From: a bacterium
Lineage (GTDB): Bacteria > Zhuqueibacterota > Zhuqueibacteria > Residuimicrobiales > Residuimicrobiaceae
DNA: 64,000 nucleotides
Assembly: GCA_035353815.1 (NCBI GenBank)
Contig: DAOQAG010000001.1
Location: 17,159-81,158, forward strand
Direction: 5' to 3'
The notes below the pieces were generated by a model, which was not told the origin of the DNA, searched no databases, and saw only the letters and a list, made by a program, of their open reading frames with translations. The position numbers and the translations under genes were made by a program. Below, in pieces: positions 6,487-45,343 of the stretch (position 1 is the stretch's first letter; every line of letters begins with the position of its first letter).

Positions 6487-6588
6487 GCCGAAGGGTGAGG
6501 AGGGCGCCGGTGTCTTTGGGGAAGGGCAAGGTCCGACCTGGAGCGGAGTGAAACGAAGGGCAAGGTGGGCACAGCGGCAGCCGCGGCT

Positions 6589-7487: not shown

Positions 7488-7490
7488 GGC

Positions 7491-14626: not shown

Positions 14627-14671
14627 ATCCTGCCGATGCGCGTCAATCCCATAACTGCAGGAATACACCCC

Positions 14672-20525: not shown

Positions 20526-21911
<1,386 letters not shown>

Positions 21912-21923
21912 GCACCCGCCCTT

Positions 21924-24347: not shown

Positions 24348-24365
24348 CTCCTCTTCAAACAGCCA

Positions 24366-27300
24366 TCAGCGCATCAACAGCATTTTGCGGGTCAGCGTCC
24401 GGCCGCCCTGGGTCAGGCGATAGAGATAGGTGCCGGTGCTCCAGCCCCGGGCATCGACGCTGATCTGGTGCCGGCCGGCCGGCTGCAACCCCTCTGCCAG
24501 TACCGCCACCTCGCGGCCGAGCAGATCATAGACAGCCAGGCGGACCGGAGCGGCCTGGGGCAGTTCGTAGCTGATCTGCGTCACCGGATTGAAGGGATTG
24601 GGATAGTTCTGCTCAAGGCCGAATCGGGCCGGGAGGGTTACCTCCGCCTGCTCCACCGCCGTGGGATTGGTGGTTTTGAGAACGACCACCAGGTTGTCCA
24701 GATAGATCGATCCGCTGGCGGCTGATCCGGCATCCGGGGCGAGCTGGATACTGTCAATCGTCAATTTGTTGCCGTCCAGGGTGCCGTTGGTCGCCAGCCA
24801 GGAGCCGACCACGCCGGGGTCGCTCATCTTCCATTCCACCAGCCGCCAGCCATACCAGTCGATCTTGACCCACTGGGTCACCTCCGGCAGGGTATTTTTG
24901 GCGGCCACCTCATCGATCGCCAGCCGGAAGAGCGAGCCGCTTCCATCTCCAAAAACCTGGATTTGCAGGGTATAGGTCGTGTCAAAGAAGACGGTGGCCG
25001 GGGTCGTGGCCGGATCGAGATAGACGCGGCAGAGGTGCTCGGCCGCTGCAGTATCCCACTGATAGCGCAGGGCGGCAGAATACTTTTGCGTCCCGAGGGA
25101 GTTGGGCAGCCATACGGTCCGGTCCATTTCAAACAGGGTCTTGGCGGCGATGGTGCCGACCGTCGAGCCGCTATAGCTGGGATCTTTCCAGTTGCTGGCG
25201 CCGAAGAATTTTTCGATGGTTACCTCCTTCAGCGTCCGCTCACCCCGGGTCTTTAAATCCAGATCGATGGGCTGGGGGATGATATTGCCGAAGGTGTCGC
25301 TGAGGGTCGGCTTCAGGAGCAGATGATAATCGGTGTTGATCTCGAGGGCTTTGGCCGGCTGGATCGAAAGCACCGAGCGGTTGCCCATGGGCACGTGCGC
25401 CCACATTGATTTGACGGGCACTCCGCCGATAGATACGAGGATCGTGGAGTCCTTGATGGAGGCGGGCAGGATCCGTTCATTGAACACGAGGTTGATCACC
25501 CCTTCAACCGCCATCGGCTCTTGCGTCCCGGCGGGATAGAGGGCGATCAGTTCCGGACCATTGAGATCGCGGGCATCGGTCGTGAAACGGATTTGAAAGG
25601 ATCCGCCCGCGGCGCCGTCGGCGTCGCCATCGAGCGCCGTGCCGTTGCGATCGCGGGCGGCATCACTCAGAGTCAAAGTATAGGTCGTTGCGAACGCCAG
25701 AGGTGCTGCCGGCTGCAGGGTCAGGGTGCGGTGGTCCGCGCTCCAGGAGATCTTGCCCACCGCGATCGCGGGCGTGATGCTCAGGGCGGCCGCCACCGAC
25801 GTGGAATCCATCCCCTTGCTGAAGACGAGGACCAGGTCATCGCCGACATGCACCGTATCGCTGTTGGCGGGTGTCGAGGCGAAGAGCCGCGGTGCGAAAG
25901 AGGGGACCGGGCCGGCTTCCGCCACATTCGAAGGCAGGGATTCGTTCCAGAACCGGTCCAGGGTCGTGGCATAATAATAGAAGGAGCCGGCGTGATCCTG
26001 CAAGCCATCAAAATGGTCGGTATAGCTGGCGCTGCCGCCGCACCAGAGAATGCGGAGCAGGGGATCTTGGTCCGGTCGCGGGGTATTTTCTTCAATGCGA
26101 TAGAGGGCGATGCGCTGCGGCGTGGTCAGGCCCGCTGGCAGGGTGACGGTCACCTCATAGGTCAACGAGTCGCGCCGGTTGACCGCGACGCCGGGCGATT
26201 CCGGCGTGGCCGTGGACAAAAAGCGCGCAGCACGTATCTTGGTCTTGTTCGAAAAAAAGGATGCTGCAGCCTCGCTGAAAAAGACGTTGTCTTCCCAGGT
26301 GCCATAGCTGAAGAACTGAAAGCCATCCACCCAGGGCACCATGCGGCAATAGTCGACGATCTCGGCATGATGATCCATGATCCGGTTTTCACTGAGGATA
26401 TAGGAGGGCGGGCCGACACTGTAGAGCCGGCCGGCGGCGATACCCTCCTGCAGGAAGGGGCCCCAACTGTTGCTGGGACCGGCGAGCATCTTGTAGAAAT
26501 CGGCGCCGACGGTCCAGTGATAGTGCATCGGCATCAGTTGGTCGACATAGCCGCGGTTGAACCAGAGCGCTGCGTCCTGATAGACCGTGCCGTAGCCCTG
26601 CCAGCCGCCCCAGTTATAGTTGCCGAGGACGGCCGCCGAAAGCCGCACCCAAGGCTTGGCGGCCTGAACGGAATCGTGCAGGGTGTGGACGAATTCGGTA
26701 ACCGACCAGCGCCACCACTCTTCCCAGGAGCCGAATCCGGCGGGCACCCCTGCACTGTAGGGATGCTCGACGTCATAGAGATAGCGCGAAGCCATGTTCG
26801 CCTGGAGATCGGCGAGTTCGGCCTCGCTGATCTGACCATCCAGCTTGGGGCGGGCGGGCTCCTTTTGCAGCGCCGCTGCACCGGATTCCTCGTTCCAGCG
26901 CACATAGTCGAGATGGAGGCCATCGATATCATAGCGGCGCACCAGATCCATCGCCACCGCCACGGTATACGCGCGCACCGCTGCCAGTCCGGGTGAGAGG
27001 GCGCGCGAGGCGTTCATCGGCTGGTCGCTGGAGTTGCGGCAGACCCATTCGGGATGGTCGCCGGACGGCGATCCGGGTGCGGTCGACGAACACTGGAAGC
27101 TGTTGAACCAGGCGTGCAGCTCCAGGCCGCGGTTGTGGGCTTGCTCGATGGCATAGGCCAGGGGGTCGAAGCCCGGATCCATGCTGTCCAGATAGCTGCC
27201 CCACGGTTCAAAGCTGGAGGCATAATAGGCCGTGCCAGCCTGGCGCACCTGCCAGACCACGGCGTTCATGTTGGCTTTCTCGTGATCATCGAGAATCTTG

Positions 27301-27446
27301 CGGATGCGCGCCTTGACTGTCTCGACCGGCTGATGCCCGCCATAGATCTCCCAGGTGATGACCCAGGTAGCGCGAAACTCGCTGGTCTCAGCGGCCCAGA
27401 GTGCACTGCAACAAAAGAGCAGCCCACAGAGAAAATACTTTTTCAT
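24366..27446 (-). CDS. Secreted T9SS cargo protein: N-terminal glycoside-hydrolase-like family 10 domain (GHL10/PF02638), SbsA-type Ig (Big_5) repeats and a T9SS CTD
   Basis: Signal 'MKKYFLCGLLFCCSALWA'; GHL10 'FRATWVITWEIYG ... NMNAVVWQVRQAGTAYYASSFEPWGSYL ... GLELHAWFN'; Big_5-like 'ALSITPAIAVGKISWSADHRTLTLQPAAPLAFATTYTLTLS'; CTD 'QNYPNPFNPVTQISYELPQAAPVRLAVYDLLGREVAVL ... GTYLYRL ... KMLLMR'. Confidence 0.75.
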   Translation of the reverse strand: MKKYFLCGLLFCCSALWAAETSEFRATWVITWEIYGGHQPVETVKARIRKILDDHEKANMNAVVWQVRQAGTAYYASSFEPWGSYLDSMDPGFDPLAYAIEQAHNRGLELHAWFNSFQCSSTAPGSPSGDHPEWVCRNSSDQPMNASRALSPGLAAVRAYTVAVAMDLVRRYDIDGLHLDYVRWNEESGAAALQKEPARPKLDGQISEAELADLQANMASRYLYDVEHPYSAGVPAGFGSWEEWWRWSVTEFVHTLHDSVQAAKPWVRLSAAVLGNYNWGGWQGYGTVYQDAALWFNRGYVDQLMPMHYHWTVGADFYKMLAGPSNSWGPFLQEGIAAGRLYSVGPPSYILSENRIMDHHAEIVDYCRMVPWVDGFQFFSYGTWEDNVFFSEAAASFFSNKTKIRAARFLSTATPESPGVAVNRRDSLTYEVTVTLPAGLTTPQRIALYRIEENTPRPDQDPLLRILWCGGSASYTDHFDGLQDHAGSFYYYATTLDRFWNESLPSNVAEAGPVPSFAPRLFASTPANSDTVHVGDDLVLVFSKGMDSTSVAAALSITPAIAVGKISWSADHRTLTLQPAAPLAFATTYTLTLSDAARDRNGTALDGDADGAAGGSFQIRFTTDARDLNGPELIALYPAGTQEPMAVEGVINLVFNERILPASIKDSTILVSIGGVPVKSMWAHVPMGNRSVLSIQPAKALEINTDYHLLLKPTLSDTFGNIIPQPIDLDLKTRGERTLKEVTIEKFFGASNWKDPSYSGSTVGTIAAKTLFEMDRTVWLPNSLGTQKYSAALRYQWDTAAAEHLCRVYLDPATTPATVFFDTTYTLQIQVFGDGSGSLFRLAIDEVAAKNTLPEVTQWVKIDWYGWRLVEWKMSDPGVVGSWLATNGTLDGNKLTIDSIQLAPDAGSAASGSIYLDNLVVVLKTTNPTAVEQAEVTLPARFGLEQNYPNPFNPVTQISYELPQAAPVRLAVYDLLGREVAVLAEGLQPAGRHQISVDARGWSTGTYLYRLTQGGRTLTRKMLLMR

Positions 27447-27470
27447 TCCCAACCTCAATGATGGTTTGTG

Positions 27471-27525
27471 CAAAAAAATCCGCTGCGGCCGCCCCGGCTG
27501 GGGCTGCAAAATCACAGCGGATTTT
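27471..27525 (-). terminator. Rho-independent terminator after partner gene 1 (compound hairpin with a T-tract)
   Basis: On the minus strand: AAATCCGCTG ... CAGCGGATTT, enclosing an inner GCCCC/GGGGC hairpin, then TTTTTTT. Confidence 0.55.
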
Positions 27526-27536
27526 AACAGCAGCAG

Positions 27537-29729
27537 TTAACGGATAATGACCAGCTTGCGAACGGCGGTGTCGCCTTTCTTGTAGAGCAGGGTATTGGTG
27601 GCCGAATCGTACTGATCCGCCGTGACTTCAAAGTGAACGATGTAGATGCCACTGACCACCACCTGGCGCGAGCTGGTGATGGAATTCCAGCTCTCATCCC
27701 CGCTGCCGTCTTCGTGCGAAATCTGGTTGATCAGATCGCCGCGCTCGGTAAAGATGCGAATGGTGCAGTGTCCGGGGATGTTGAGGAACATGATCTTGTC
27801 GTTCTCGCCGGTGTACTGCAGCACCCGCGATTTGATGTTGTAGGGATTGGGCACGATCCGGATGCCCGGGGTGATCACATTGCCATCGGCATCGACCACG
27901 TCTTCCAGGCTTGAGCCTGCCTGCCGGCGCAGGTAGGCCGGTTCGGTGGTCTGGGTGTAGTAGCGACTGCTCAGCAAGGGTCCTGGCGGATTGCACTCGC
28001 CGCTGCTGTTCTTGCTGCCGTCGTTGAAGGCGGAGACATAATAGTAATAGGAGATGCCGCGGATGGCCGAGACATCGGCAAAGGCATGGATATCCTTGCC
28101 ACCGCTGTAGATCTCCTGAAAGACCGTGTCGGTGCGCCCGACCGCGCGAAAGACCTTGTAGCCCGCAAAGTCGGACTCGCTCTCCGAGGGACTGGCGGAC
28201 CAGGAAACCGTGATGCGGTCGCCGCCCGATTTGACATCGACCAGGGGCGGTGGCTGCGGCGGCTGGGGAATCTTGTACTCGGCGTCCATGGCGCGCTTGG
28301 CGCGGCCGAAGGTCATCAGGATCGAATCCTTGCCGGTGAACACCCACTTGTTCTTGTAGACATCCTTGTCGTTGGTGGTGCTGCCATCGGGCAGGGTGAA
28401 GGGGCCCTTGTCACCCGGATCGAGATAGGCTTTCTTCCAGCGGGCGCCGATCGATTCGCACATCTGCCGGTTGAGGCCGGAGACGCCTTCGGCCTCAACA
28501 AAGGTGACCGACTCACCCGGCTGCAGGTCCCAGGGGCCGTAACAGGCCCAGACATTGGTGCCGCCGCCGTCGTTGTGCACTGTGGAGGGATCGGGATGGG
28601 TGGCCATGTAGGTTTCATCAAAGCGGGTCGTTCCGCCCAGTCCCATGTAGGGATTGCCGCTGAGGACGTTGTAGAGGATGGCCATGGAGGGTTCACCCTC
28701 TTTGGTATAGCTGGTGACACCGGGATAGGAGTCGCCCGCATGCCACCCCAGTTTGAGCAGCTGCGCCGGATCATCGCTATGATCGCCCGCCGACTTGTCG
28801 ACGTGGAGAATGGCCACGCCCGCATGCTGGGGGGAGGCCAGCCGTCCGTTTTTGGAGATGTACGGGCCGCCGATATTATCAAAGGCGTTGACCGGATTCT
28901 GCCCGACGTATTCAAAACCGCAGCGGATCCAGTCGACGATGGGATTGGCTTCGGTGATCTTTTCACCGGCATGCGCCGCATAGTTCTCGCCGCGCTTGGT
29001 AACCCAGCTGAACTTGCCGTAGGTTTGCGCCGATCCCACCGGGCTGGCACCGTCCCGGCACACCGAGTAGCGCACTCCGAAACTGAAGCGGACGCCCGTG
29101 AGGGGGCGTGTCAGCTCGATCTCGGAGTCATAATCGGTATTACCGGTGTTCTCCAGCGTCCAGGTCTGGATGAAATAATTGTTATGGTACTGCTGGGAGA
29201 AGGCATAGATGGTCCGGGTGATGGTAAGGCCGATCAGGGTATTGACCTTGTTGATGACAATACGGTCGGGAATGATCGTGGGATCGATCTCATCGACATC
29301 CGTGGCATACGGAGCGCTGATATCAATGCCGTCCACGTAGACCGTCGGCAGCGCAAATTTGGCGATCTGCTTGAGTTCTACCGGGAAGAGAGCGGTCCCG
29401 ACATTGCCTTCGGAAAAGGTGATCGCGAAATTGTCATAATGTTCATCGCGGGCATTGGTAAAGTTGGTGCAGCCGATCCACTGCCGGCGGATCACCGAAT
29501 TGTCCTGATAGAAATACCCGGCCGGCCAGCGCAGGCCCTCATAATAGGTGTTGTTCCAGGCGCGGTCGGAACCGTAGGCGGTGTAATGGTTTTGCAGCTC
29601 ACCAATACGAATATAGCGCCGGTCCGTAGAGACCACCTGCGAAAACGCCGCGAACCAAATTCCGGTGAGCATCAGGGTGAGGATGATCCCCTTGAGACCG
29701 GGCATTGGGGGGTGATAGGTTCTCTTCAT
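27537..29729 (-). CDS. ~730-aa secreted beta-rich protein with an FN3-like domain and a T9SS-type C-terminal sorting domain; it sits in the 'SusD position' downstream of TonB-dependent transporter 1 (partner 1, uncharacterised family)
   Basis: Signal 'GIILTLMLTGIWFAAFSQ', conserved 'FSQQYHNNYFIQ', FN3-like 'ITVSWSASPSESESDFAGYKVFRAVGRTD', and C-terminus 'VPNPYNIKSRVLQYTGENDKIMFLNIPGHCTIRIFTERGDLI ... SGIYIVHFEVT ... RKLVIIR'. It has no lipobox and no TPR/SusD signature. An RBS precedes the ATG, which lies 17 nt after the transporter's stop codon. Confidence 0.6.
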   Translation of the reverse strand: MKRTYHPPMPGLKGIILTLMLTGIWFAAFSQVVSTDRRYIRIGELQNHYTAYGSDRAWNNTYYEGLRWPAGYFYQDNSVIRRQWIGCTNFTNARDEHYDNFAITFSEGNVGTALFPVELKQIAKFALPTVYVDGIDISAPYATDVDEIDPTIIPDRIVINKVNTLIGLTITRTIYAFSQQYHNNYFIQTWTLENTGNTDYDSEIELTRPLTGVRFSFGVRYSVCRDGASPVGSAQTYGKFSWVTKRGENYAAHAGEKITEANPIVDWIRCGFEYVGQNPVNAFDNIGGPYISKNGRLASPQHAGVAILHVDKSAGDHSDDPAQLLKLGWHAGDSYPGVTSYTKEGEPSMAILYNVLSGNPYMGLGGTTRFDETYMATHPDPSTVHNDGGGTNVWACYGPWDLQPGESVTFVEAEGVSGLNRQMCESIGARWKKAYLDPGDKGPFTLPDGSTTNDKDVYKNKWVFTGKDSILMTFGRAKRAMDAEYKIPQPPQPPPLVDVKSGGDRITVSWSASPSESESDFAGYKVFRAVGRTDTVFQEIYSGGKDIHAFADVSAIRGISYYYYVSAFNDGSKNSSGECNPPGPLLSSRYYTQTTEPAYLRRQAGSSLEDVVDADGNVITPGIRIVPNPYNIKSRVLQYTGENDKIMFLNIPGHCTIRIFTERGDLINQISHEDGSGDESWNSITSSRQVVVSGIYIVHFEVTADQYDSATNTLLYKKGDTAVRKLVIIR

Positions 29730-29746
29730 TTTAATTCCTCGTGCAA

Positions 29747-32700
29747 TTAAAAGTTGATCCTGATGCCGAACGTGATATCACGCGGATTCAGCCACCAGAG
29801 GGAATCGATGTTCGGATTATCGATATAGGACTTGTTCTCCTTGCGCACCTTGTTGCGCGCCGTGATGGCCGGGTCGTTATAGGGATTGAGCTCAAGGGCT
29901 TCATATTTGGTCCCTTCGGGGCGCAGATCACCGATCTTGTCGCTCCCCTTTTCATCCCCCTTCTCCCAGTCAAAATTGAGAGATTCGAGATAATCCACAT
30001 AATCATAATTGTCCGAAAAACCAGCAGAATTGAGATACTTGATATCGAGCACGTTGGTAAAATCAAGATAGAGCTGGCTCTCCATTTTCGCGATGCGGAT
30101 CGATTTGGCCAGACGCAGATCGAGATTATACCAGTTCTTCCAGCGCACATTGTCCACTACGCCCGGGATATTGTTGGGATTGTAGGTGACGTAACTGCCG
30201 GCCCGCCAGTCCCCGAGCAGGCTGACGTTGAAAGATTCGAACGGATGCAGGCCGGAGATTTGCGGACCAAATCCTTTGGGCGTGTGCAGATCGAGGTTCA
30301 TGCGGGCATAGGGGCGCGGATGCGGCCGCTCCTGATAGAGATTTTCGCGCAGGTAGGCCCGCTGTTCGTTGGGATTTTCATAATTGGAAACCAGCCCGAA
30401 ATAGCCGCTGGTGGAAACCTCATAGGTATAATTCACAAAACCGGTGATCCACTCGCCGCTCTGTTTGGTCAGGGTCGCCTCAAAGCCGCGGATATCCTGG
30501 TAGCGATTGTTCTCGGCCTTGTAGTAATCGACCGTGCCCTTGAAATTGTGATAATAGACCCAGCCGGCCTGATTGCTCACGTCCTTGTAATGGGCGGCGA
30601 GATTCAACAGCATCGTCCCGAAAAGACTCTGCGAATAGCCCAGTTCGTAGGAGACGGTCTTTTCCATTTCCATATTGGGATCGCCCAGGTAGGTGACCAG
30701 GCCGCTGCGTTCCTGCTGCATCCGGAACCGGTAGGAGGAATAGGCCTCCTGACGGAAATGGCCATAGTTGAAATAGAGCTTGCTGTTGTCGGTGATGGGG
30801 TGCGAAATGCCCAGGCGCGGACTCCAGTAGGTCCGGGATTTCGATTTCGCCTTGGCCACGTGGGTCGAGATCTCTTTGCCATATCCGGCCCCAAGATTGA
30901 CATCGTAGGCATCGAGTACGAGATAATCGCCATTCGGATGGACCTGATCCATGCGTAAGCCAAGGTTGGCGACAAAACCCTGATACTCGATCTTGTCCTG
31001 TGCAAAGGCACCAATGCGGAAGGGGAAGACGTTGTAGGTCATCGCGCGGTTCCAGGTATCCATGGAAGGGCTCACGGTACTGGATTTGATATCATAGTCA
31101 TTATAGACGGCCTGAACACCCGTCTTGAGCTGGTGCCGTGCGGAGATCTGGCTGGTCAGGTCGGCTTTGAAGGTGGTGGTGCTGTTCACGCTTTTGTCGC
31201 GCCCCAGGTTCATCCAGCCGCCCATCCGGTCACCGTTGATGCTGTTGGTGCCGTAGCCCCAGTACCCGTAGGGCATTTCATCGACAAAATAGCCGGGCAG
31301 GATCTGGTTCGTCCTGGTCGTGTCGCGCAGGCTCATCTGGTAGGTATTGGTGCGGTTGTATTGATACTCCAGGGCGACCTCATAGAAGGTGCGGGGTGAA
31401 AGCATGTGCGTCAGCTTCAGACCATGCACCTGCCGGTAAATGGCGGTGGGGCTGTAGTAGGCGGGCACATAGAGAACGGCCAGGCCATCGGTGCTGTTGA
31501 GCAGATCGGCGATCTCACTCTGATCGCGCAGGACATACCCGGTCGGTGTGGTGGTCCAGTTGTACGGGGAGACCGAGTAGACCTCGCCGTAGAGGCCGGT
31601 ATACATCAACTTCATGTTCCTGGCCGGATCGGAGGTCAGCTTGAGCTGGGTATAGTTCTCGTTGTAGCCGTCACGGGAGAGAGGATAGATGAACATCTCC
31701 TGTTCGCGGAAGTGGCTGAGGAAGAAGCGCGTATGGCCGAACTGATTCAGCAGGGGTACCGGACCGCCGAAGCCCAAATCCGCCACATAGTCGGGTTTGG
31801 TGATATCGCCCTGGCGGCGGTGCTGCCATTCATATACCTTTTTCGCCCCCTCGGCTGTAACGTCATTAGTGGGATTGGCATCCTGCAGGGTCTTGTCCGC
31901 CACCGACTGCCAGCCGTCAAAGTTGGGGTACTGGCTGCGCGTGTACTCATCCCAGGCGCCATTATCGGTGCCCGTGTAACAGACCGCCGGATCGAGATAG
32001 ACGCGGTTGAAATAGGACATGGGATCATAGAGGGAGAGGCCGAAATGCTTGGAGGCCGGGGGACTGTAATTAAGATTGGCGGTAAAATTGTAGCGTGCAG
32101 CATCCCCTTCCTTGGTGATCACATTGACCAGACCGGAACGGACGTTGCCATATTCGGCGTTGAACCCGCCTGTCTGGATCTGGATCTCTTTCACCGCGCT
32201 CATCGACAGCGCGGCGTAGGGAATATTGGAGCGCTCATCGTTCAGCGAGAGGCCGTCGAGCAGCATGATGGTCTGATTGGCGGCACCGCCGCGGACCAGA
32301 AGGCCTTCGCTGCCCTTCTGGATGCCCGCCTGGAGGACGAGGGCTTCACGCACGGTCTGCACCGGCATATTCTCGATCGTCGCGGTCTCGAGATTGGTCT
32401 GGCTGCTCGAGACATCGCGCTTTACCACCGGGCGCTGCGCCACAACCACGACATTCTCCCCTTCGATGGCCACACTTTTTAGGGCGCGGTTGACTTCGGT
32501 GGTGCGATCGATCTCGACGCGCACCTGCCGCACCTGGTAGGTGGCATAGCCCAGCATGGAGAAACGCAGATCATAGGTGCCGGGCGAAAGGTTAATGATG
32601 GTGAAGCGTCCATCGATGTTGGTCACGGCGCCATAGCTGGTGCCCTCGATGATGACATTGACGCCAGGCAGAGGCCCTCCGGTCTCCGCATCGGTGACCA

Positions 32701-32788
32701 CACCGGTCAATTTGCCGGTGGTGCCGGCAAACAGCCCGCAGGAAAGACCGAGTACCAGAATCAGAATCCATGTGTACAGTCTTGGCAT
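29747..32788 (-). CDS. SusC/RagA-like TonB-dependent outer-membrane transporter 1 (CarboxypepD_reg N-domain, plug, beta-barrel)
   Basis: 'FAGTTGKLTGVVTDAETGGPLPGVNVIIEGTSYGAVTNIDGRFTI' is the CarboxypepD_reg domain; the TonB box is 'ENVVVVAQRP'; the plug is 'LLVRGGAANQTIMLLDGLSLNDE ... GGFNAEYGNVRSGLVNVITK'; the C-terminus '...RDITFGIRINF' ends in an aromatic residue. Confidence 0.8.
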   Translation of the reverse strand: MPRLYTWILILVLGLSCGLFAGTTGKLTGVVTDAETGGPLPGVNVIIEGTSYGAVTNIDGRFTIINLSPGTYDLRFSMLGYATYQVRQVRVEIDRTTEVNRALKSVAIEGENVVVVAQRPVVKRDVSSSQTNLETATIENMPVQTVREALVLQAGIQKGSEGLLVRGGAANQTIMLLDGLSLNDERSNIPYAALSMSAVKEIQIQTGGFNAEYGNVRSGLVNVITKEGDAARYNFTANLNYSPPASKHFGLSLYDPMSYFNRVYLDPAVCYTGTDNGAWDEYTRSQYPNFDGWQSVADKTLQDANPTNDVTAEGAKKVYEWQHRRQGDITKPDYVADLGFGGPVPLLNQFGHTRFFLSHFREQEMFIYPLSRDGYNENYTQLKLTSDPARNMKLMYTGLYGEVYSVSPYNWTTTPTGYVLRDQSEIADLLNSTDGLAVLYVPAYYSPTAIYRQVHGLKLTHMLSPRTFYEVALEYQYNRTNTYQMSLRDTTRTNQILPGYFVDEMPYGYWGYGTNSINGDRMGGWMNLGRDKSVNSTTTFKADLTSQISARHQLKTGVQAVYNDYDIKSSTVSPSMDTWNRAMTYNVFPFRIGAFAQDKIEYQGFVANLGLRMDQVHPNGDYLVLDAYDVNLGAGYGKEISTHVAKAKSKSRTYWSPRLGISHPITDNSKLYFNYGHFRQEAYSSYRFRMQQERSGLVTYLGDPNMEMEKTVSYELGYSQSLFGTMLLNLAAHYKDVSNQAGWVYYHNFKGTVDYYKAENNRYQDIRGFEATLTKQSGEWITGFVNYTYEVSTSGYFGLVSNYENPNEQRAYLRENLYQERPHPRPYARMNLDLHTPKGFGPQISGLHPFESFNVSLLGDWRAGSYVTYNPNNIPGVVDNVRWKNWYNLDLRLAKSIRIAKMESQLYLDFTNVLDIKYLNSAGFSDNYDYVDYLESLNFDWEKGDEKGSDKIGDLRPEGTKYEALELNPYNDPAITARNKVRKENKSYIDNPNIDSLWWLNPRDITFGIRINF

Positions 32789-32851
32789 AATGCTTCTCTC
32801 CTGTAATCCATAATACCTTGAGACAAGAGCCGGGTCAGAACAAGAAAAGGA

Positions 32852-35005
32852 TCAGCGGATGATCACAAATTTGCGAAAGGCGCTTTCACCTTTTTTATAA
32901 AGGATCTGGTTGGTGCTGCTGTCGACATAGTCCTGGGTAACCTCGAAATGGACGATGTAGACGCCGGAGACCACCACCTGCCGCGCCGAGGTGATCGAAT
33001 TCCAGCGTTCGTCGCCGCTGCCGTTCTCATGATGGATGGTATCGATCAGATCGCCCCGTTCGGTATAGATCCGGATGGTGCAGTGACCGGGGATATTGAG
33101 GAACATGATCTTGTCGTCTTCGCCCACATATTGCAGTTTCCGCGAGCGGATATCATAAGGGTTGGGGACAACACGAATATCCTCCAGCCTGCCGCCAGCC
33201 TGACGTGAGAGGTAGGCGGGCTGACTGGCGAATCCATAGAATTTACTGCTGTGCAGCGGACCGGTCGGATTGTACACCCCTTCGCTATTGTTGGAGCCGT
33301 CGTTGACCGCAACGACATAGTAGTAATAGGCCTGGCCGCGGGTGGCTTGCTTGTCGTTGTAGATATAGGATCCGGGACCGCCCGAGAATATTTCGTTATA
33401 GAGGGTGTCCGGCCGTCCGATGGCGCGATAGACCTTGTAACCACCAAAACCGCCGCTGCTTTCCGAACCGCTCGGACCCCAGGAAATGCTGATCATGTCG
33501 CCGCCCGACTTGACCTCAACAAAGGAGGGCGGAAGCGGCGGCTGAGGGATATTGAATCCGGAATCAAAATTGCGTTTGGCCCGGCTGAAGGTGAGCAGGA
33601 TCGAATCCTTGCCGGTCGCGACCCAGGTGTCCTTGTACTCGTCCTTGCTGGTCGTCGTGGCGCCGCCGGGCAAGGAGAAGGGCCCGGTATCACTCGCATT
33701 GTTGTAGGCCTGTTTCCAGCGGCGTCCGATCAGCTCGCATTGCTCCCGCGACAGGCCGGCGACGCCTTCCGCCTCGACGATGGTGATGCTCTCGCCGTGC
33801 GCCAGATCCCAGGGCCCGTAGCAGACCCACATATGGGTGCCACCGGCATCCCCATGCGCTGTGAAGGCATCGGGGCTGGAGGCGAGATATTTTTCGTCAA
33901 AGCGTTCATTGCCGCCGAGGCCGCCCAGGGCCGTACCGGCAGTCATGTCATATAACTTGGCCATCAACGGCAGATCATTGTCGGTCATCAAGCCGGTGGA
34001 AAAAAAGCTCTGGGCATCGGCGCCGTGCCACCCGTTCAGCAGGGGCTGCGCGGGATCGTCCGCCTTGTCGGTTCCGCTTTTGTCGACATGCAGGATGACA
34101 TTGCCCGCGTGCTGGGGCGCGGCCAGGCGTCCGTCGCCGTTGACATCCGGCGCGCCGATGCAATCCCAGGCGATCTCCTTCTTCTGCCCGGCCCAGGCAA
34201 AATTGCAGCGCAGCCAGTCGACCGGACCGTCGGCTTCGGTCAGCTGATCCCCGGCATGGGCGGCATACTTCTCTCCCCGCCGCGTCACCCAGCTCTGCTG
34301 CCCCCACTGCTGCGTGCCACTGGTCATCATCGCTCCCTCACGGCACACGCTGTAGCGTACTCCGGTGCTGATGCGCACCGCTTTGAGCGGGGCTGTCAGT
34401 TCGATCTCGTCATCATAGTCGGTATTGCCGGTATTGGTAAAGGTGAAGACCTTGATGAAATAGTTATCATGGTACTGCTGGGTGAAGTAATAGATCTCCC
34501 GCTGCATCGATAATCCCATGGAGGTGTTGATGCGATTGATGATGACGCGATCCGCTACCAGATCGGGATTGACTTCATCCACATCTCCCGAGTAGATCGC
34601 CGTGATGTCGCTGCCATCGACATAGATGGAAGGGGGAGCAAATTTGGCGATCTGCTTGATCTCTATCGGAAAAATCGCCAGCCCGACATTTTCGTCGGTG
34701 GCCATGGGGAAGGCATACTTTTCATAATACTTGTCGTTCTTGTTTTTAAACTCCCGGCACCCCATCCAGATGCAGTTGATGACCGCATTGTCCTGATAGG
34801 AATAGTCAGCCGGCCACATCAACCCTTCATAATAGGTATTGTTGAAGGCGCGCTCACGTCCATACGACTGGAAAAAGCTCTGCAGCGGACCGACGCGGAC
34901 ATAGCGCCGCTCGGTGCCCAGCAATTGCCCCGTGGCATTCTCGACCATCATCAGCCACGCCAGCGCCCCGACCAACACCGCCAGATATCCGGAATTCTTC
35001 TTCAT
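32852..35005 (-). CDS. Partner 2: paralog (~65% identity) of the 27537..29729 protein, with an FN3-like domain and a T9SS-type CTD
   Basis: 'FTQQYHDNYFIK', 'ISISWGPSGSESSGGFGGYKVYRAIGRPDT', and C-terminus 'VPNPYDIRSRKLQYVGEDDKIMFLNIPGHCTIRIYTERGDLI ... SGVYIVHFEVT ... RKFVIIR'. Confidence 0.6.
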   Translation of the reverse strand: MKKNSGYLAVLVGALAWLMMVENATGQLLGTERRYVRVGPLQSFFQSYGRERAFNNTYYEGLMWPADYSYQDNAVINCIWMGCREFKNKNDKYYEKYAFPMATDENVGLAIFPIEIKQIAKFAPPSIYVDGSDITAIYSGDVDEVNPDLVADRVIINRINTSMGLSMQREIYYFTQQYHDNYFIKVFTFTNTGNTDYDDEIELTAPLKAVRISTGVRYSVCREGAMMTSGTQQWGQQSWVTRRGEKYAAHAGDQLTEADGPVDWLRCNFAWAGQKKEIAWDCIGAPDVNGDGRLAAPQHAGNVILHVDKSGTDKADDPAQPLLNGWHGADAQSFFSTGLMTDNDLPLMAKLYDMTAGTALGGLGGNERFDEKYLASSPDAFTAHGDAGGTHMWVCYGPWDLAHGESITIVEAEGVAGLSREQCELIGRRWKQAYNNASDTGPFSLPGGATTTSKDEYKDTWVATGKDSILLTFSRAKRNFDSGFNIPQPPLPPSFVEVKSGGDMISISWGPSGSESSGGFGGYKVYRAIGRPDTLYNEIFSGGPGSYIYNDKQATRGQAYYYYVVAVNDGSNNSEGVYNPTGPLHSSKFYGFASQPAYLSRQAGGRLEDIRVVPNPYDIRSRKLQYVGEDDKIMFLNIPGHCTIRIYTERGDLIDTIHHENGSGDERWNSITSARQVVVSGVYIVHFEVTQDYVDSSTNQILYKKGESAFRKFVIIR

Positions 35006-35035
35006 GGTGCTATTGCTCCTCTGCCGTCTGCCGGG

Positions 35036-38000
35036 TTAAAAATTGAACTTTAGACCAATAGTGATATCGCGCGGATTTAGAAACGTCAGGGCTTCGATGT
35101 TGGGGTTATCGATATACGATTTGTCTTCCTTGCGTTTGGCATTGCGGGCGGAGATAGTCGGATCGTTGTTGGGATTGGCTTCAAGAGGATCATAGGCGAT
35201 GTCATCCGGCCGGTAGGTGCCGATGCGGTCATCCCCGCGGTTGTCGCCCTTCTCCCAGGAGAAACACAGGGACTGCATGTAGAACTCATAATCGTAGCTG
35301 TCCGAAAAACCGGCATAATTCAGGAATTTGAAATCGAAAACGTTGCTGGCATCTACATAAAACTGGACTTGCAGACCCCGGGCCGTGATCTGCTTGGAGA
35401 GGCGCATATCCAGATAATAGGTATCCTTCCAGCGCACATTATCCTGAATGCCGGCCAGATCGTTGGGATTGTAGGTATCATAGGCACCGGCACTCCAGCC
35501 GCCGAGGATGTTGAGATTGATATCGGCCAGCACCGGCAAGCCCAGGTCATGCGGAGTATGCAGATCGAGGTTGATCCGGGCGTAGGGCTGCGGCCGCGGC
35601 TTGGATTGGTAGGTGTTCAAGGCCACATAGTCCCGCTGCCGCGCCGGGTCCTGATAATAGCTCAACAGCCCGAAATAGCCGCTGGTCCGGACATCGTAGG
35701 TATAGTTGATGAATCCCGAGATCCAGCGCCCCACCGTTTTGTTCAAGGTCAATTCCAGTCCGCGGATATCGGCATAGTTGTTGTTCACCGCCTTGCTGTA
35801 ATTCACTGTGCTGTTGACGTTGATATAGTTGATCCAGCCGGGTTGGTTGGTGATGTCCTTGTAATAGGCGGCGATGTTCAGCAGGAAAAGGTCAAGGAGG
35901 TTTTGACTGTACCCCAGCTCATACTGGATGGTTTTCTCCGGCTGCAAATTGGGATTGCCCAGATAGGTCACCGAGCCGTTCTGCTCGCGCTGCAGCATGA
36001 AACGATTGGCAGAAGAGGGCTCCTGCGTAAAGTGGCCGTAATTGAAATAGAGCTTGGAGTTCGCGGTGATGGGATGGGATACGCCGAGGCGCGGACTCCA
36101 GAGCAGCGAGGATTTGGCGTCAGACTTGCGGACCGTTTGCAGCAGCTGTTTGCCCAGACCCTTGCCAAGATTCTCGTCATAATCGCCCAGCACCATATAG
36201 GTGCCATTGGGATCGCTGTAATCCATGCGCACGCCGAGATTGGCGATGAAACCCTGGAATTCGAGTTTGTCCTGCAGATAGGCCCCGATACGGAAGGGAA
36301 AAACATGGTAGAACATATTACGGCTCCAGCCGTCCGGCAGGGCGGGACTGTCGGTGAAGGAGCGGATGTCATAGTCGTTGTACACGATCTGCACGCCGGT
36401 CTTGATCTGGTTGCGATGGTTGACCTGGCTGGTCAAGTCCAATTTGAGATTGGTGGTCGCATTAATGCTCTTGTCCCGCCCCAGATTCATCCACGCGCCC
36501 ATGCGGTCGCCATTGATGCTCGGAGCGCTGTAGCCCATATAGCCGTAGGGCAGTTCGTCGACATAGTAGCCGGGGACCGGCTGGTAGATCCGGGCGGTGT
36601 CTCGATCCGAGGTCTTGTAGGTGTTGTTGCGGCTATAGTTATACTGCAACGACACATCATAAAACGTCCGGGTGCTGACCATATGCGTCAGTTGCATGCT
36701 GTAGACCTGGCGGTAGATCGAACTCGGACTGTAGTACCCCGGCATGTAGAGAATGGCCCGTCCCTCTGTGGCGGTGGGGAGATCAGCGATCTCGCTCTGA
36801 TCGCGCAGGACCCGGCCGTTGGGCAGGGTCGTCCAGTTATACGGCGAAACCGAATGCACCTCGCCGTATAAGCCGGAGAGGACCAGTTTCATTTTCGGGG
36901 TGAGGTCGCTGGTGAGTTTGAGCCGGGTATAGTTCTCGCCATAGTTATCGCGCGACAGCGGGAAAATGAACATATCCTGCTCGCGGACATGGGTGGCGAG
37001 GAAGCGGAGATGACCAAGACGCGATCCGATCACCGGCACGGGACCGCCAAAGGTGCCGTCGATGATATAGTCCGGCTTCTCGATATCCCCCTGCCGGCGG
37101 TGCTGCCACTCATAGAGACGCCGTGCACCCTCCGGGGTCAGATCGTTGCCGGGATCATTGTCTTGCAGGGTTTTTTCCGAATAGGAGTTCCATCCGTCAA
37201 AGCTGGGGTACTGGCGGCGGGTAAAATCGTCCCAGGCGCCATTATTCGTGCCCGTATAGCAGACCGCCGGATCCATATAGACCCGGTTGAAGAAGGAGTA
37301 GGGATCATAGATCGAAGGGCCGAAGTGTTTGGCGGCCGGCGGGCTGTAGCGCAGGATCAGCGCACCGTTGAATCGGCCCGGTTCGCTCTCCTTGGTGATG
37401 ACATTGACGAGACCGGCGCGCAGATTGCCATATTCGGCATTGAATCCGCCGGTTTGCACATTGATCTCTTTGACAGCGCTGAAGCCGACGGCGGTATAGG
37501 GGATATTGGAGCGTTCGTCGTTCAGGGAGATGCCGTCCATCATAAAGGCGGTCTGGCCGGCACTGCTGCCGCGCACCAGGATGCCCTCGCGGCCGGACTG
37601 GATCCCCGCCTGCAAGCTGAGCACCTGCCGCACGGTTTCGACAGGCATGCTCTCGATCTTGGCCGCCTCGATGCTCATCTGGCTGTTGGAGATATCGCGC
37701 ACCACCAGCGGGCGATCGGCGACAACCACCACTTCCTCCCCCTGCAGGGTTTCCGCCTTGAGCCGGGCATCGCTCTGGGTGGTCAGATCGATCTCTACGC
37801 GCACAGCGCGCATCGTGACCGTGGCATAGCCCATCAGACTGAATTTGAGGTCATAGGTTCCGGGCGGGATGTTGAGAATGAGAAAACGCCCCTCCAGATT
37901 GGTCACCCCGCCGTACCCGCTTCCGGGAATGGTGACGTTGACCCCCGGCAAGTTTTCCCCACTCTCGGCATCGGTGACCATCCCCGTGATTTTGCCTGTT

Positions 38001-38062
38001 GTGCCAGCGAACAGCATCCCCGCCGCAAGAAACAGCAGAATACAGAGCAATGCGCGATGCAT
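35036..38062 (-). CDS. SusC/RagA-like TonB-dependent outer-membrane transporter 2 (~70% identical to transporter 1)
   Basis: I chose the Met at 38062 ('MHRALLCILLFLAAGMLFAGTTGKITGMVTDAESGENLPGVNV'), which has a GGTGAGGA RBS; the 72-codon upstream extension is Arg/Pro-rich junk. TonB box 'EEVVVVADRP'; C-terminus '...RDITIGLKFNF'. Confidence 0.8.
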   Translation of the reverse strand: MHRALLCILLFLAAGMLFAGTTGKITGMVTDAESGENLPGVNVTIPGSGYGGVTNLEGRFLILNIPPGTYDLKFSLMGYATVTMRAVRVEIDLTTQSDARLKAETLQGEEVVVVADRPLVVRDISNSQMSIEAAKIESMPVETVRQVLSLQAGIQSGREGILVRGSSAGQTAFMMDGISLNDERSNIPYTAVGFSAVKEINVQTGGFNAEYGNLRAGLVNVITKESEPGRFNGALILRYSPPAAKHFGPSIYDPYSFFNRVYMDPAVCYTGTNNGAWDDFTRRQYPSFDGWNSYSEKTLQDNDPGNDLTPEGARRLYEWQHRRQGDIEKPDYIIDGTFGGPVPVIGSRLGHLRFLATHVREQDMFIFPLSRDNYGENYTRLKLTSDLTPKMKLVLSGLYGEVHSVSPYNWTTLPNGRVLRDQSEIADLPTATEGRAILYMPGYYSPSSIYRQVYSMQLTHMVSTRTFYDVSLQYNYSRNNTYKTSDRDTARIYQPVPGYYVDELPYGYMGYSAPSINGDRMGAWMNLGRDKSINATTNLKLDLTSQVNHRNQIKTGVQIVYNDYDIRSFTDSPALPDGWSRNMFYHVFPFRIGAYLQDKLEFQGFIANLGVRMDYSDPNGTYMVLGDYDENLGKGLGKQLLQTVRKSDAKSSLLWSPRLGVSHPITANSKLYFNYGHFTQEPSSANRFMLQREQNGSVTYLGNPNLQPEKTIQYELGYSQNLLDLFLLNIAAYYKDITNQPGWINYINVNSTVNYSKAVNNNYADIRGLELTLNKTVGRWISGFINYTYDVRTSGYFGLLSYYQDPARQRDYVALNTYQSKPRPQPYARINLDLHTPHDLGLPVLADINLNILGGWSAGAYDTYNPNDLAGIQDNVRWKDTYYLDMRLSKQITARGLQVQFYVDASNVFDFKFLNYAGFSDSYDYEFYMQSLCFSWEKGDNRGDDRIGTYRPDDIAYDPLEANPNNDPTISARNAKRKEDKSYIDNPNIEALTFLNPRDITIGLKFNF

Positions 38063-38280
38063 AGAATCCTCACCTAAAAAGAGGGCATGAACGGGCAATG
38101 ACGCCACGACCATAGGGAGTGCAATCCGTGCTGCACCACCCCCTGGTCCATGATTACAGGCGGCGCGAACAATGACCATCGGGGAACAGCCGCGAGGGTG
38201 CCCCCGGCAGGGAGGCGGCGTGCGCCGCCCTCTTGCCGGAGGTATCCTTGCCCCCGGTCCTGCCGGAGTCAATGACACCC

Positions 38281-38317
38281 GCAGAGAAAAGCCTGTGCGC
38301 CTTGCGGCGCACAGGCT
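38281..38317 (-). terminator. Rho-independent terminator after the 805-aa CBM-like gene
   Basis: Perfect 12-bp stem AGCCTGTGCGCC / GGCGCACAGGCT with a 4-nt loop, followed on the minus strand by TTTTCTCT. Confidence 0.65.
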
Positions 38318-38333
38318 CTCTCCGGAAAAACGG

Positions 38334-40751
38334 CTACTTCATCAGAGTCATCTTCATGGTTTTGGCAAAGCCGTTGCCCTCGAGGCGGTAGAAATAGATG
38401 CCGCTCGGAGCCACACTTCCATCCAGATTGGTGCCGTTCCAGGATACCCGGTAGCTGCCGGCATTCTGTTCGGCGTCAACCAGATTGGCCACAACCTGAC
38501 CCATCGCATTGAAGACCGTGAGGCGGATATGGCTCTTCATCGGCAGGTCGTAGGAGATGGAGGTCGTCGGGTTGAAGGGGTTCGGATAGTTGGCGTTCAG
38601 CGTGAATTCCGCGGGCAGGCCGCTGGTCGGGATTCTCTCGACCTTGACCCACTGCGAGCCGAACTTGTCGGTCGGGACGACGAAGACCGGGTTGGCATCG
38701 CTGATGGTGACGACACGGTTCATCGCAAAACCGGCTTCGTTGTCCATCGGAGTGGTGCCGGCATTCAGGGTGTCGGTGTAACCGGTGGAGTAGATGCCGT
38801 ATTTGTAGTAGTGGCTCGCGGTCGATCCCGCCGCGAACAGAACCTGGGTTGTCCAGATGCCGTCGCCGGCGGTGGCATCGCCGTTGGTGCCATCATCGTA
38901 CATCGAGATCAGGGTGCCGCCGACATCGGCAACACTCCAGCCCGCCCAGCCGCCGGTGCCGATCGGGGCAAAATCGCCGTTGATAACGACTTTTTCGACG
39001 GTCGGGAACGCCTTCTTGTTGTAGTAATCCTTGGCGCCGTTGGTGTTAACCGAGAAGGTCACGGTGACATCCTGGGAGAGCTTCTTCCCAGCCGGGGTCA
39101 CGTTCGGCTTGAAAGCATCCAGGACCATATCCTCGCCGGTGAAGACGAAGGTATGGTTGTCTCCACCTTCCCAACCACCATCCGCAAAGTTGCCTTCCGG
39201 ACGTCCGCGCCATTTCCAGCCCTGGGTCGTGCCGACGATGTCGGTGATGGCATGGGTGGCGGTATAGAGCGTCGGGACCACCAGGTCAGGCTGGGCGATC
39301 CACTCATCATTGTAGGCCCAACCATTGAAACCGCCGAGGACCAGGATCTGATCGGTGCCGGGGTTGAAGCCCTTGGCCAGCATGTCGGTCACATCCGCCT
39401 GGAAGGTGACGTTCGCGGTCTTGGTCTCGGTGTATTTGTCGATGTTGTTGTAGAAGGCCATATCCAGGACCTTGTCGACGCCCGGGACGGTCAGCTTGCG
39501 GTTGTCAATGCTCTCCCAACGATCGCCGGGCATCAGCACGTACTTGAACTCGAGCTGGGTGCCGACTTGATCACCCGGGAAGGTCTTGGTCAGGGCATAG
39601 ACGCCCGCTTCCGCAGTGGGCAGGCACTCATCCGCATCACCCGCCCAGCCGTTGAAGCTGCCGCGGATGACGACCTTGTCGGTGGCCGGATTGAAATTGC
39701 CATACTGCTGCTGAATGCCCATGTTGATGCGGAAGGTGACGTTGACAGGCCCGCCCGCGGTTTTGACGAACATCTGCGCCGGAACATAATAATCCGCGCC
39801 GAAGCAGGAGACGTAGGCGGTATCGCCGGTGACGGTGAAGGTGACACCGCGCGGTTTTTCGCCAGCCGGCTGGGCCGGATCATTGGTCTGCCACTGGATG
39901 CTGTCGGTCGGAGTCAGGGTGACCGGGTCGATCTCATACCAGGTCATCGATTTGTAGGGGCTGGCAGAGGGAGCTTCATCGTTGTTGCCGCCGTCGATCC
40001 AGAGCTTGCCGGTGGCATAGTTCCAGTTCATCGAAGCCGTAGCCGCGCCGCGGCAGAGGGTATCGGGAACCGCGAAGGGGCTGAACTTGTCGGGACGGGT
40101 GTAGCGCAGCATGAACTTTTTGTCATAGCGGGGTACGTAGACGCTGAGACCGTCATCCGAGACCGCCAGGGTACGGCCATAGCCATCCTGGGAATCGGTG
40201 ACATTGCCGAGATAGGAACCGTCGGCGCCGTAGGTCTCGACCGGGTTGCCCGGCAGGACGTAGCCCAGATAGATATCGCCGTCGACATCCGCCACCGGCG
40301 CGCAATACGAGGTCAGTTTTTGCGGGACAATACGCTGCAACAACTCGCCGGTTTTGTAGTCAAAGCGGTAGATATAGGGATAGGCCGTCCAGAGGACATT
40401 ACCATCATGGTCCATGCCCAGTCCGCGATGGGAATTGTAGAGGGTGTCGGTCTGGCCGAAGCCGGTGACCAGGTTCGCGCCGCTCCAGGGCGTGGGGGTG
40501 CCATCCGGATAGAAGCAGAAGATCTGCCGGGTAGCACCGGTCGTGCCATTGGCCTTGGTGATCGTGCTGGTGGCGCCATACATCTGCAGCCAGACCTTGC
40601 CTTCACGGTCAACGATAATGCCGTGCGAACCCATGCCACCGACCGGTTTGAAGTCATCGGCCGGGAAATTCCGGACGAACACCCAGCCAGCCGAGGCCGC
40701 CATAGCGGAGAGCAGAACCAGCGCAATGGCCAATACTAACATTCTTTTCAT
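38334..40751 (-). CDS. Secreted T9SS cargo protein with an N-terminal beta-propeller-like region and three starch-/carbohydrate-binding-module-like repeats
   Basis: Signal 'MKRMLVLAIALVLLSAMAASA'. Three repeats resemble CBM20/25-type modules ('VNVTFRINMG...GSFNGWAGD', 'ANVTFQADVT...GGFNGWAYNDEW', 'VTVTFSVNTN...GDFAPIGTGGWAGW'). CTD 'NANYPNPFNPTTSISYDLPMKSHIRLTVFNAMGQVVANL ... GIYFYRL ... KMTLMK'. Confidence 0.6.
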   Translation of the reverse strand: MKRMLVLAIALVLLSAMAASAGWVFVRNFPADDFKPVGGMGSHGIIVDREGKVWLQMYGATSTITKANGTTGATRQIFCFYPDGTPTPWSGANLVTGFGQTDTLYNSHRGLGMDHDGNVLWTAYPYIYRFDYKTGELLQRIVPQKLTSYCAPVADVDGDIYLGYVLPGNPVETYGADGSYLGNVTDSQDGYGRTLAVSDDGLSVYVPRYDKKFMLRYTRPDKFSPFAVPDTLCRGAATASMNWNYATGKLWIDGGNNDEAPSASPYKSMTWYEIDPVTLTPTDSIQWQTNDPAQPAGEKPRGVTFTVTGDTAYVSCFGADYYVPAQMFVKTAGGPVNVTFRINMGIQQQYGNFNPATDKVVIRGSFNGWAGDADECLPTAEAGVYALTKTFPGDQVGTQLEFKYVLMPGDRWESIDNRKLTVPGVDKVLDMAFYNNIDKYTETKTANVTFQADVTDMLAKGFNPGTDQILVLGGFNGWAYNDEWIAQPDLVVPTLYTATHAITDIVGTTQGWKWRGRPEGNFADGGWEGGDNHTFVFTGEDMVLDAFKPNVTPAGKKLSQDVTVTFSVNTNGAKDYYNKKAFPTVEKVVINGDFAPIGTGGWAGWSVADVGGTLISMYDDGTNGDATAGDGIWTTQVLFAAGSTASHYYKYGIYSTGYTDTLNAGTTPMDNEAGFAMNRVVTISDANPVFVVPTDKFGSQWVKVERIPTSGLPAEFTLNANYPNPFNPTTSISYDLPMKSHIRLTVFNAMGQVVANLVDAEQNAGSYRVSWNGTNLDGSVAPSGIYFYRLEGNGFAKTMKMTLMK

Positions 40752-40918
40752 GCTAACCTCCTTGTTAATAGCCTTTGGGAATTTAGGTAATGCCGTCCAG
40801 CGTCTCTGATGTCTATCAGCCTCCTTTCAGGATTCTTTCAACAACTCCGGAAGGCAGCCTATGCCTCCCATCTATTATGGAAAACCAGATGCATATCAGA
40901 GCGTTACCTCCCCCGCTC

Positions 40919-42142: not shown

Positions 42143-42187
42143 ATGAAACGTCCTCATCTAATGATCAACGGATCAACCTTCAGTGAA

Positions 42188-43195: not shown

Positions 43196-43235
43196 AATCC
43201 ATTACTCCTTTATTGGAATTGCGTGTCTATAGCCT

Positions 43236-45317: not shown

Positions 45318-45343
45318 TCCTTCTCGATTAGGGGATGAGAAAA

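Follow-up and report, generated by a model that had tools for sequence, protein, structure and literature searches.

How is a large TonB-dependent transporter served at the cell surface when the gene beside it encodes nothing recognisable as SusD? The question is raised by a locus in a 64,000-nucleotide stretch of a Residuimicrobiaceae genome (assembly GCA_035353815.1, contig DAOQAG010000001.1, positions 17,159 to 81,158 of the forward strand), referred to here as the window. A preliminary description made from its letters and open reading frames (ORFs) had pointed out two neighbouring minus-strand pairs of a SusC-like transporter gene (T) and a gene for a secreted partner (P), and proposed that P fills the SusD slot and is sorted through a type IX secretion system (T9SS). 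This interpretation is partly supported by the analysis below. T is a TonB-dependent transporter family of its own, and we conclude from sequence comparisons that P ends in a divergent T9SS type A C-terminal domain (CTD). On balance, we favour the view that the two proteins work together as a dedicated outer-membrane module importing a polymer, most likely a glycan, with P as the putative T9SS-delivered surface partner of T.

Gene pairs of the locus

All four genes first described are present where they had been placed, at 27537-38062, and checking of the ORFs confirmed them. The gaps of 17 and 30 nt between each transporter gene and its partner gene were also given correctly, but a third and more divergent pair at 43236-48499 had been missed. 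The three pairs and their main parts are as follows, where NTE stands for N-terminal extension and SPI for signal peptidase I.

45344-48499 (-): T3, TonB-dependent transporter of a divergent subtype (NTE, plug and barrel), starting MKLRRLL; CarbopepD_reg_2 and Plug matches, 41% identity to T1 over the full length
43236-45317 (-): P3, partner of the divergent subtype, 693 residues; no Pfam match, 39% identity to P1 overall and 68% in the C-terminal domain
43239-43541 (-): C-terminal tail of P3
35036-38062 (-): T2, TonB-dependent transporter, 1008 residues from MHRALL; CarbopepD_reg_2, Plug and TonB_dep_Rec_b-barrel matches, the ORF continuing to a GTG at 38278
32852-35005 (-): P2, partner, 717 residues; no Pfam match, 58% identity to P1
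32855-33199 (-): C-terminal tail of P2
29747-32788 (-): T1, TonB-dependent transporter, 1013 residues; NTE 25-105, TonB-box region ~110-120, plug ~123-233, 22-strand barrel
31793-32062 (-): helical loop of T1 between barrel strands 1 and 2 (residues 243-332), from the secondary structure of the model; putatively extracellular
29780-30055 (-): helical loop of T1 between strands 21 and 22 (residues 912-1003), likewise from the model and putatively extracellular
27537-29729 (-): P1, partner, 730 residues; SPI signal, supersandwich N-domain ~31-485, fibronectin type III (FN3) domain ~495-572, CTD ~621-730
27540-27869 (-): C-terminal tail of P1, a putative divergent T9SS type A CTD; PorZ-tail match at E 2.4e-4, TIGR04183 14.2 bits

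The sequence motifs on which the pairs had been recognised were all recovered: FAGTTGK(L/I)TG, (N/E)VVVVA(Q/D)RP and RDITFGIRINF in the transporters, and F(S/T)QQYH(N/D)NYFI and VPNPY...CTIRI(F/Y)TERGDLI...RK(L/F)VIIR in the partners. Identity between the duplicates had been overestimated at 65-70%, the measured values being 62% for T1/T2 and the 58% listed above for P1/P2. Similarity is nevertheless far above chance: BLASTP gives E = 3e-154 for P1/P3 and E = 0 within the duplicates. Ahead of the P1 ATG stands a GAGGA Shine-Dalgarno sequence. The window is matched by a 95.7-kb contig of Joint Genome Institute (JGI) metagenome 3300010352. The nearest genome loci bearing a candidate-phylum label belong to KSB1 metagenome-assembled genomes (64-70%), and one genome of this kind labelled Cytophagia reaches 88% in its best segment.

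Pairing and conservation across genomes

In a scan of one genome per species, at least 571 stretches encode a relative of the partner. The partner family comprises 636 clusters at 50% identity (E <= 1e-30) and is ~60% identical across phyla. By label, the best 79 loci are distributed as follows.

KSB1: 7
Ignavibacteria-type: 16
Calditrichia-type: 15
Marinimicrobia/Fidelibacterota: 16
Kryptoniota: 2
Delongbacteria: 1
WOR-3: 1
"Acidobacteriota": 1
"Bacteroidetes/Bacteroidota/Cytophagia": 8
Unclassified: 12

A partner gene is also carried by the cultured Caldithrix abyssi (P0073). Association of the two genes, for which the preliminary description had asked in relatives, is nearly obligate. In the species genomes, every partner gene with enough upstream DNA (95 of 95) is directly preceded by a T gene of the same strand, at a median distance of 54 nt between the end of T and the start of P. 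The subtypes of T and P match in 93 of these 95 pairs by a tblastn-based count. An independent, transporter-centred sample of metagenome contigs gives the same picture from the other side, P following 72 of 74 testable T genes. Several paralogous T-P pairs occur per locus and per genome, and T and P have diverged together: across 65 pairs their identity matrices correlate with r = 0.83, a value reached by none of 999 Mantel permutations.

Pfam and NCBIfam contain no model describing the family, and public annotation calls P "fibronectin" or "hypothetical protein". No description of the pair was found in searches of the literature on TonB/SusC/SusD, T9SS and transporter lids in Ignavibacteria, Calditrichaeota, Marinimicrobia and KSB1, nor is it mentioned in the papers on the Caldithrix and Melioribacter genomes.

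The transporter

A carboxypeptidase-regulatory-like domain followed by a plug had been read from the start of the transporters, and T1 and T2 do match CarbopepD_reg_2 and Plug. The Pfam TonB barrel model matches T2, and the barrel of T1 is confirmed by its predicted structure. The AlphaFold2 model of T1 (mean confidence score, pLDDT, 86.8) is a plugged barrel of ~780 residues in which 22 strands were counted. Ahead of the plug, residues 107-120 form a low-confidence linker with a conserved GEEVVVVAxRP strand at the position expected of a TonB box. With plug, TonB box and 22-strand barrel, T has the hallmarks of a TonB-dependent transporter.

Its designation as SusC-like stands for architecture but not for family. 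NTE, plug and 22-strand barrel in a protein of ~1000 residues agree with SusC/RagA. However, the SusC/RagA model TIGR04056 gives 74.9 bits for T1, 70.2 for T2 and 87.8 for T3 against a cut-off of 368.25, and these matches are limited to model positions 2 to ~282 of 981, corresponding to the NTE and plug. In structural comparison, BtuB and Cir are closer relatives of T than any SusC/RagA protein is, and the adjacent SusD/RagB gene typical of SusC is absent, P1, P2 and P3 lying downstream without a match to the SusD family. When the T1 sequence alone was compared with PDB chains, nothing was found.

The T1 model has two helical loops of ~90 residues each. The loops at residues 243-332 and 912-1003 flank the same barrel seam and are conserved as well as the barrel strands. 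Loop 243-332 ranks among the best conserved regions of the whole family and is the best conserved part between paralogues, with 73% identity in T1/T2 and 58% in T1/T3.

The partner protein

The partner had been described as lacking SusD features, a tetratricopeptide repeat (TPR) fold and a lipobox, and this is borne out throughout. SusD_RagB and SusD-like Pfam models find no match in P1 and P2 at E <= 0.1 or in P3 at E <= 0.01, TPR models do not match, and none of the three proteins matches any Pfam family. The predicted fold is a beta-rich, galactose-mutarotase-like supersandwich instead of an alpha-helical TPR structure. The FN3 module claimed for the partner is recovered. An ordinary SusC/SusD polysaccharide utilisation locus (PUL), in which SusD has merely become too divergent to recognise, can on these grounds be rejected: a helical TPR protein is not what the model predicts. 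The probability left to it is negligible, and it is the sole rival that we exclude.

The signal peptides of P1, P2 and P3 contain no Cys, and a lipobox-like motif is present in just 4 of 79 homologue N-termini. An SPI site of the form A|Q is typical, and an [ASG]|Q site is predicted in 46 of 49 P1/P2-type partners, leaving an N-terminal Gln. This predicted Gln agrees with the Q-rule, which its authors report for Bacteroidetes and not for the whole Fibrobacteres-Chlorobi-Bacteroidetes group (PMC5837995). In distant relatives (P0242, P0246, P0329, P0343, P0370 and P0383) the partner module is fused to N-terminal BNR/sortilin-type propellers or to a C-terminal beta-helix of the Chlam_PMP/pectinesterase-like kind.

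The supersandwich fold would also allow a different role for P, in which it would be chiefly an enzyme: a new glycan-processing lyase, epimerase or hydrolase, secreted by the T9SS and encoded beside the transporter of its product in the manner of a utilisome. The fold is indeed shared with enzymes, and P has an invariant cluster of His, Asp and Tyr. However, the best structural matches of P are the non-catalytic N-domains of glycoside hydrolase (GH) families GH15, GH94, GH65 and GH116, and P lacks the (alpha/alpha)6 catalytic domain. No Pfam or NCBIfam enzyme family is matched by P, and its strict one-to-one, subtype-matched pairing with T is typical of SusD-type partners and not of PUL enzymes. 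A chiefly enzymatic P is hence unlikely, and a surface partner of T remains our preferred reading.

The C-terminal tail

The preliminary description had assigned the partner a T9SS-type CTD. Homology to type A CTDs is supported, while the curated cut-offs of the hidden Markov models (HMMs) are not reached. Isolated tails of P1, P2 and P3 match T9SS-related models exclusively, the PorZ tail at E values of 1.7e-5 to 8.5e-4 and the PorU tail and CHU_C weakly, all under the curated cut-offs. An HMM scan of 43 family tails at E < 0.01 found the PorZ tail in 36, TIGR04183 in 11 and the PorU tail in 10. Aligned by hhalign with 72 canonical CTDs of cargo proteins encoded in these loci, the 43 tails gave a probability of homology of 94.4% (E 9.1e-8), and the 76 aligned columns extend to the last residue. 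In distant relatives detected by means of the family profile, Por_Secre_tail scores 33-46 bits at the position corresponding to the P tail, and the canonical T9SS tail stands at the protein end in those with Pfam matches (6 of 8 scanned). A search with a profile of the partner tails returned matches at chance level only. As the HMM matches, the hhalign alignment and the canonical tails of distant relatives agree, we conclude from sequence that the tail is a divergent type A CTD. It also has the beta-sandwich fold of such domains, which are ~80-110 residues long.

This assignment bears on the possibility that P is no T9SS substrate, its tail being merely an Ig-like domain, and instead works in the periplasm by receiving or processing what T imports. 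The scores below the cut-offs would suit such a protein. Against it, T9SS families are the only HMM matches of the 43 tails, the alignment with canonical CTDs extends to the very C-terminus, the corresponding position in relatives is taken by a canonical CTD, and in the lineages of the family the loci also hold canonical T9SS cargo and PorV/PorQ genes. We regard a periplasmic P as improbable, and continue with P as a T9SS-delivered protein.

Across the family the tail is conserved as well as the rest of the protein, and between paralogues it is the most conserved region, with 78% and 68% identity compared to 56% and 33% for the N-domain. Cys, His, Trp and a C-terminal Arg are invariant and GSGD is nearly so. 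Conservation above that of the N-domain is odd for a mere secretion signal.

Neighbouring genes

The pairs belong to a minus-strand block spanning 48499-24366, in the order T3, P3, a PorV/PorQ-family barrel, a TIG lipoprotein, a carbohydrate-binding-module (CBM)-like T9SS cargo protein, T2, P2, T1, P1 and a T9SS cargo protein with GHL10 and Big_5 domains. The genes accompanying the pairs are listed here.

42188-43195 (-): PorV/PorQ-family outer-membrane beta-barrel; NF033709 PorV_fam 203.9 bits (cut-off 90), Pfam PorP_SprF 31.5 (22.3)
40919-42157 (-): TIG/IPT-domain lipoprotein; Pfam TIG E 7.7e-12, lipobox LAGC followed by DSND in the translation
38334-40751 (-): T9SS cargo protein combining weak CBM20/53-like stretches with a choice-of-anchor-X domain and canonical CTD; Por_Secre_tail 28 bits and FlgD_ig 36.7 (both cut-offs 27), TIGR04183 35.9 (23)
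24366-27446 (-): T9SS cargo protein with GHL10, Big_5 and a canonical CTD; GHL10 E 5e-37, Por_Secre_tail 32 bits, TIGR04183 39.4 bits; called at 1026 residues in the JGI annotation, the ORF reaching 27515 with MKKYFL as the likely start

The barrel protein misses both the PorQ equivalog (88.5 against 220 bits) and the PorV equivalog (83.1 against 250 bits), and is thus a family member without a PorV or PorQ type. In 30 of 33 loci such a gene comes directly after a P3-type partner, and T3-P3-PorV/PorQ triads recur in other genomes. The TIG, CBM-like and GHL10 genes also recur downstream in related loci, TIG in most and long GHL10 matches in many. The TIG/IPT protein, the one lipoprotein observed in the locus, has no Pfam match in its C-terminal ~280 residues and could be a surface glycan-binding protein. 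The GHL10 family includes DigH/YddW of E. coli, a cutter of denuded peptidoglycan strands, which would make cell-wall glycan a candidate substrate of the locus.

These neighbours raise the further possibility that T and P serve the biogenesis of the cell envelope or of the T9SS, for example in handling surface-layer or cargo proteins, and not nutrient import. The PorV/PorQ-family gene and T9SS cargo in the same locus, the likeness of the P tail to the tails of the T9SS components PorZ and PorU, and a heptosyltransferase gene downstream would all be in keeping with such a role. T, however, has a plug, a TonB-box-like strand and an importer fold; paralogous pairs are multiplied per locus and genome as in nutrient-uptake families; and glycan-related domains (GHL10, CBM-like) occur in the neighbours. 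A biogenesis module is therefore very unlikely, and import is retained as the function of the pair in what follows.

Proposed mechanism

T would act as a TonB-energised import channel, and P would be delivered to the surface by the T9SS instead of by lipidation. We infer that P is secreted and stays at the cell surface, where it would form a complex with the T encoded just upstream and capture or present the substrate to it. The supersandwich domain may bind or otherwise handle a glycan, with FN3 as a spacer. The tail may be retained, holding P on an outer-membrane barrel that could be the PorV/PorQ-family protein of the locus or T itself, through its conserved loops. That the tail is kept as a docking module is proposed on account of its conservation, its PorZ/PorU-like character and the PorV/PorQ-family barrel in the locus. 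The T9SS-secreted enzymes of the locus (the GHL10 and CBM-like proteins), together with the TIG lipoprotein, would provide fragments and pass them on. The job of T and P is probably like that of SusC and SusD, though both lie outside those families.

A more far-reaching proposal is that a stable complex of T, T9SS-delivered P and a PorV/PorQ-type barrel, held together through the retained CTD, is the main polymer-import machine in KSB1, Calditrichota, Ignavibacteria, Marinimicrobia/Fidelibacterota and Kryptoniota, groups without large SusCD repertoires. We put this forward tentatively, as a possibility somewhat short of probable.

Several observations weigh against import by a surface-anchored pair. 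The window holds a single PorV/PorQ-family gene for three T-P pairs, so one-to-one anchoring of three P proteins cannot hold. The supersandwich fold is common to enzymes such as aldose epimerases and polysaccharide lyases of family PL4, and P may thus be catalytic and not a binder. In the isolated tails, TIGR04183 reaches 14.2 bits in P1 and 22.5 in P3 (P2 is not listed) against a curated cut-off of 23, and PF18962 matches P3 alone with 14 bits against 27. The extracellular position of loops 243-332 and 912-1003 is deduced from the standard strand order of TonB-dependent transporters, not from coordinates. Two loci, L124 and L125, have T genes (49-50% identity to T1) without P, and in L124 an unrelated 637-residue protein at 5587-7500 (+) occupies the P slot. 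Finally, the correlated divergence of T and P is partly due to shared species phylogeny.

Significance

If T and P are a polymer-uptake machine, the pair would be a marker of substrate use in groups that are mostly uncultured, much as SusC/D is in Bacteroidota. Its carriers, Marinimicrobia/SAR406, Calditrichota, KSB1 and Ignavibacteria lineages, are known chiefly from metagenomes of marine water and sediment. It would also mean that the partner serving a TonB transporter can be one delivered by the T9SS and not a lipidated one. Should the three-part complex prove true, TonB transporters would be equipped in a third manner, next to free hemophores and lids that are lipoproteins, and the T9SS tail would have a new use outside secretion, that of docking a protein permanently. 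Such a complex could be a forerunner of SusCD or its counterpart in evolution.

Other features of the window

Downstream of the locus, after a glycosyltransferase family 9 heptosyltransferase gene, a histidine kinase and a sigma-54-dependent response regulator are encoded at 20526-23267 (-). Because of this kinase and sigma-54 activator, the sigma-54 promoter motif was sought; the window contains 31 matches compared to 31.5 expected, none usefully placed. Promoter-like and terminator-like sites in 24000-43900 show no excess over shuffled expectation, so no operon boundaries can be drawn from them.

A further probable T9SS-type cargo protein with Golvesin_C and ASH domains and a FlgD_ig-type C-terminal domain is encoded at 14636-17374 (+). 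At 17778-19706 (-) lies a gene for a 642-residue protein in which multihaem cytochrome c domains are fused to a membrane domain of the cytochrome b561-like kind. Long ORFs of up to 855 residues run opposite real genes, at 38172-40739, 28086-29750 and 25521-26996 (+) and elsewhere. The only one of these scanned, 38172-40739 (+), has no Pfam match, and they are most likely shadow ORFs of DNA with ~60% G+C.

Comparison with known systems

The closest analogy is SusC/SusD (RagA/RagB). In both, a transporter of ~1000 residues with a carboxypeptidase-regulatory-like extension, plug and large barrel is followed by the gene of a cognate surface partner, and pairs are multiplied in loci among secreted glycan-active proteins. 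T nonetheless falls outside SusC/RagA by sequence and by structural ranking, and P, an SPI-secreted supersandwich and FN3 protein with a T9SS-type tail, is unlike the alpha-helical TPR lipoprotein SusD. Non-SusC TonB transporters with non-SusD lipoprotein lids are known from Bacteroides, including BtuB-BtuG, XusA-XusB, DUF4876 and others (Price et al., bioRxiv 10.1101/2023.03.17.533168). All these lids are lipoproteins, whereas P has no lipobox, carries a T9SS-type tail and belongs to none of their families. The T-P family, moreover, was encountered chiefly in lineages other than Bacteroidota, namely KSB1, Calditrichia, Ignavibacteria, Marinimicrobia/Fidelibacterota and Kryptoniota.

The preliminary description had considered the arrangement an undescribed SusC-partner architecture. 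This holds in that no account of the family was found in the sources searched, but a T9SS-sorted helper of a TonB-dependent transporter is not wholly unprecedented because of the Flavobacterium hemophore HmuY/HfpY, a T9SS-secreted accessory of TonB-dependent uptake with a Por_Secre_tail (PMC9618737). HmuY/HfpY differs from P in its HmuY-like fold, heme substrate and canonical CTD. Its description is that of a secreted or extracellular heme binder, and not of a partner with strict pairing, matching subtypes and multiple copies per locus.

For the fold of P, the nearest known structures are the N-domains of GH15, GH94, GH65 and GH116 enzymes and the aldose 1-epimerases, which share the supersandwich at 6-11% sequence identity. 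Unlike the GH enzymes, P has no (alpha/alpha)6 domain, and it has no HMM match to those families.

For the tail of P, the known models are T9SS proteins that stay bound to a barrel. PorU and PorZ retain their CTDs, with PorV and PorQ as their anchors (PMC5562754), and type B CTD proteins bind PorP-like barrels, as in SprB-SprF and PG1035-PorP (PMC9143113). P resembles the PorZ-PorQ and PorU-PorV systems in that its tails match those of PorZ and PorU best and a PorV/PorQ-family gene lies in the locus. It differs in having, in this window, three P genes per single barrel gene and in the rest of the protein, which is unrelated to PorZ or PorU; retention of the CTD and binding to a barrel, reported for those two, are for P a proposal.

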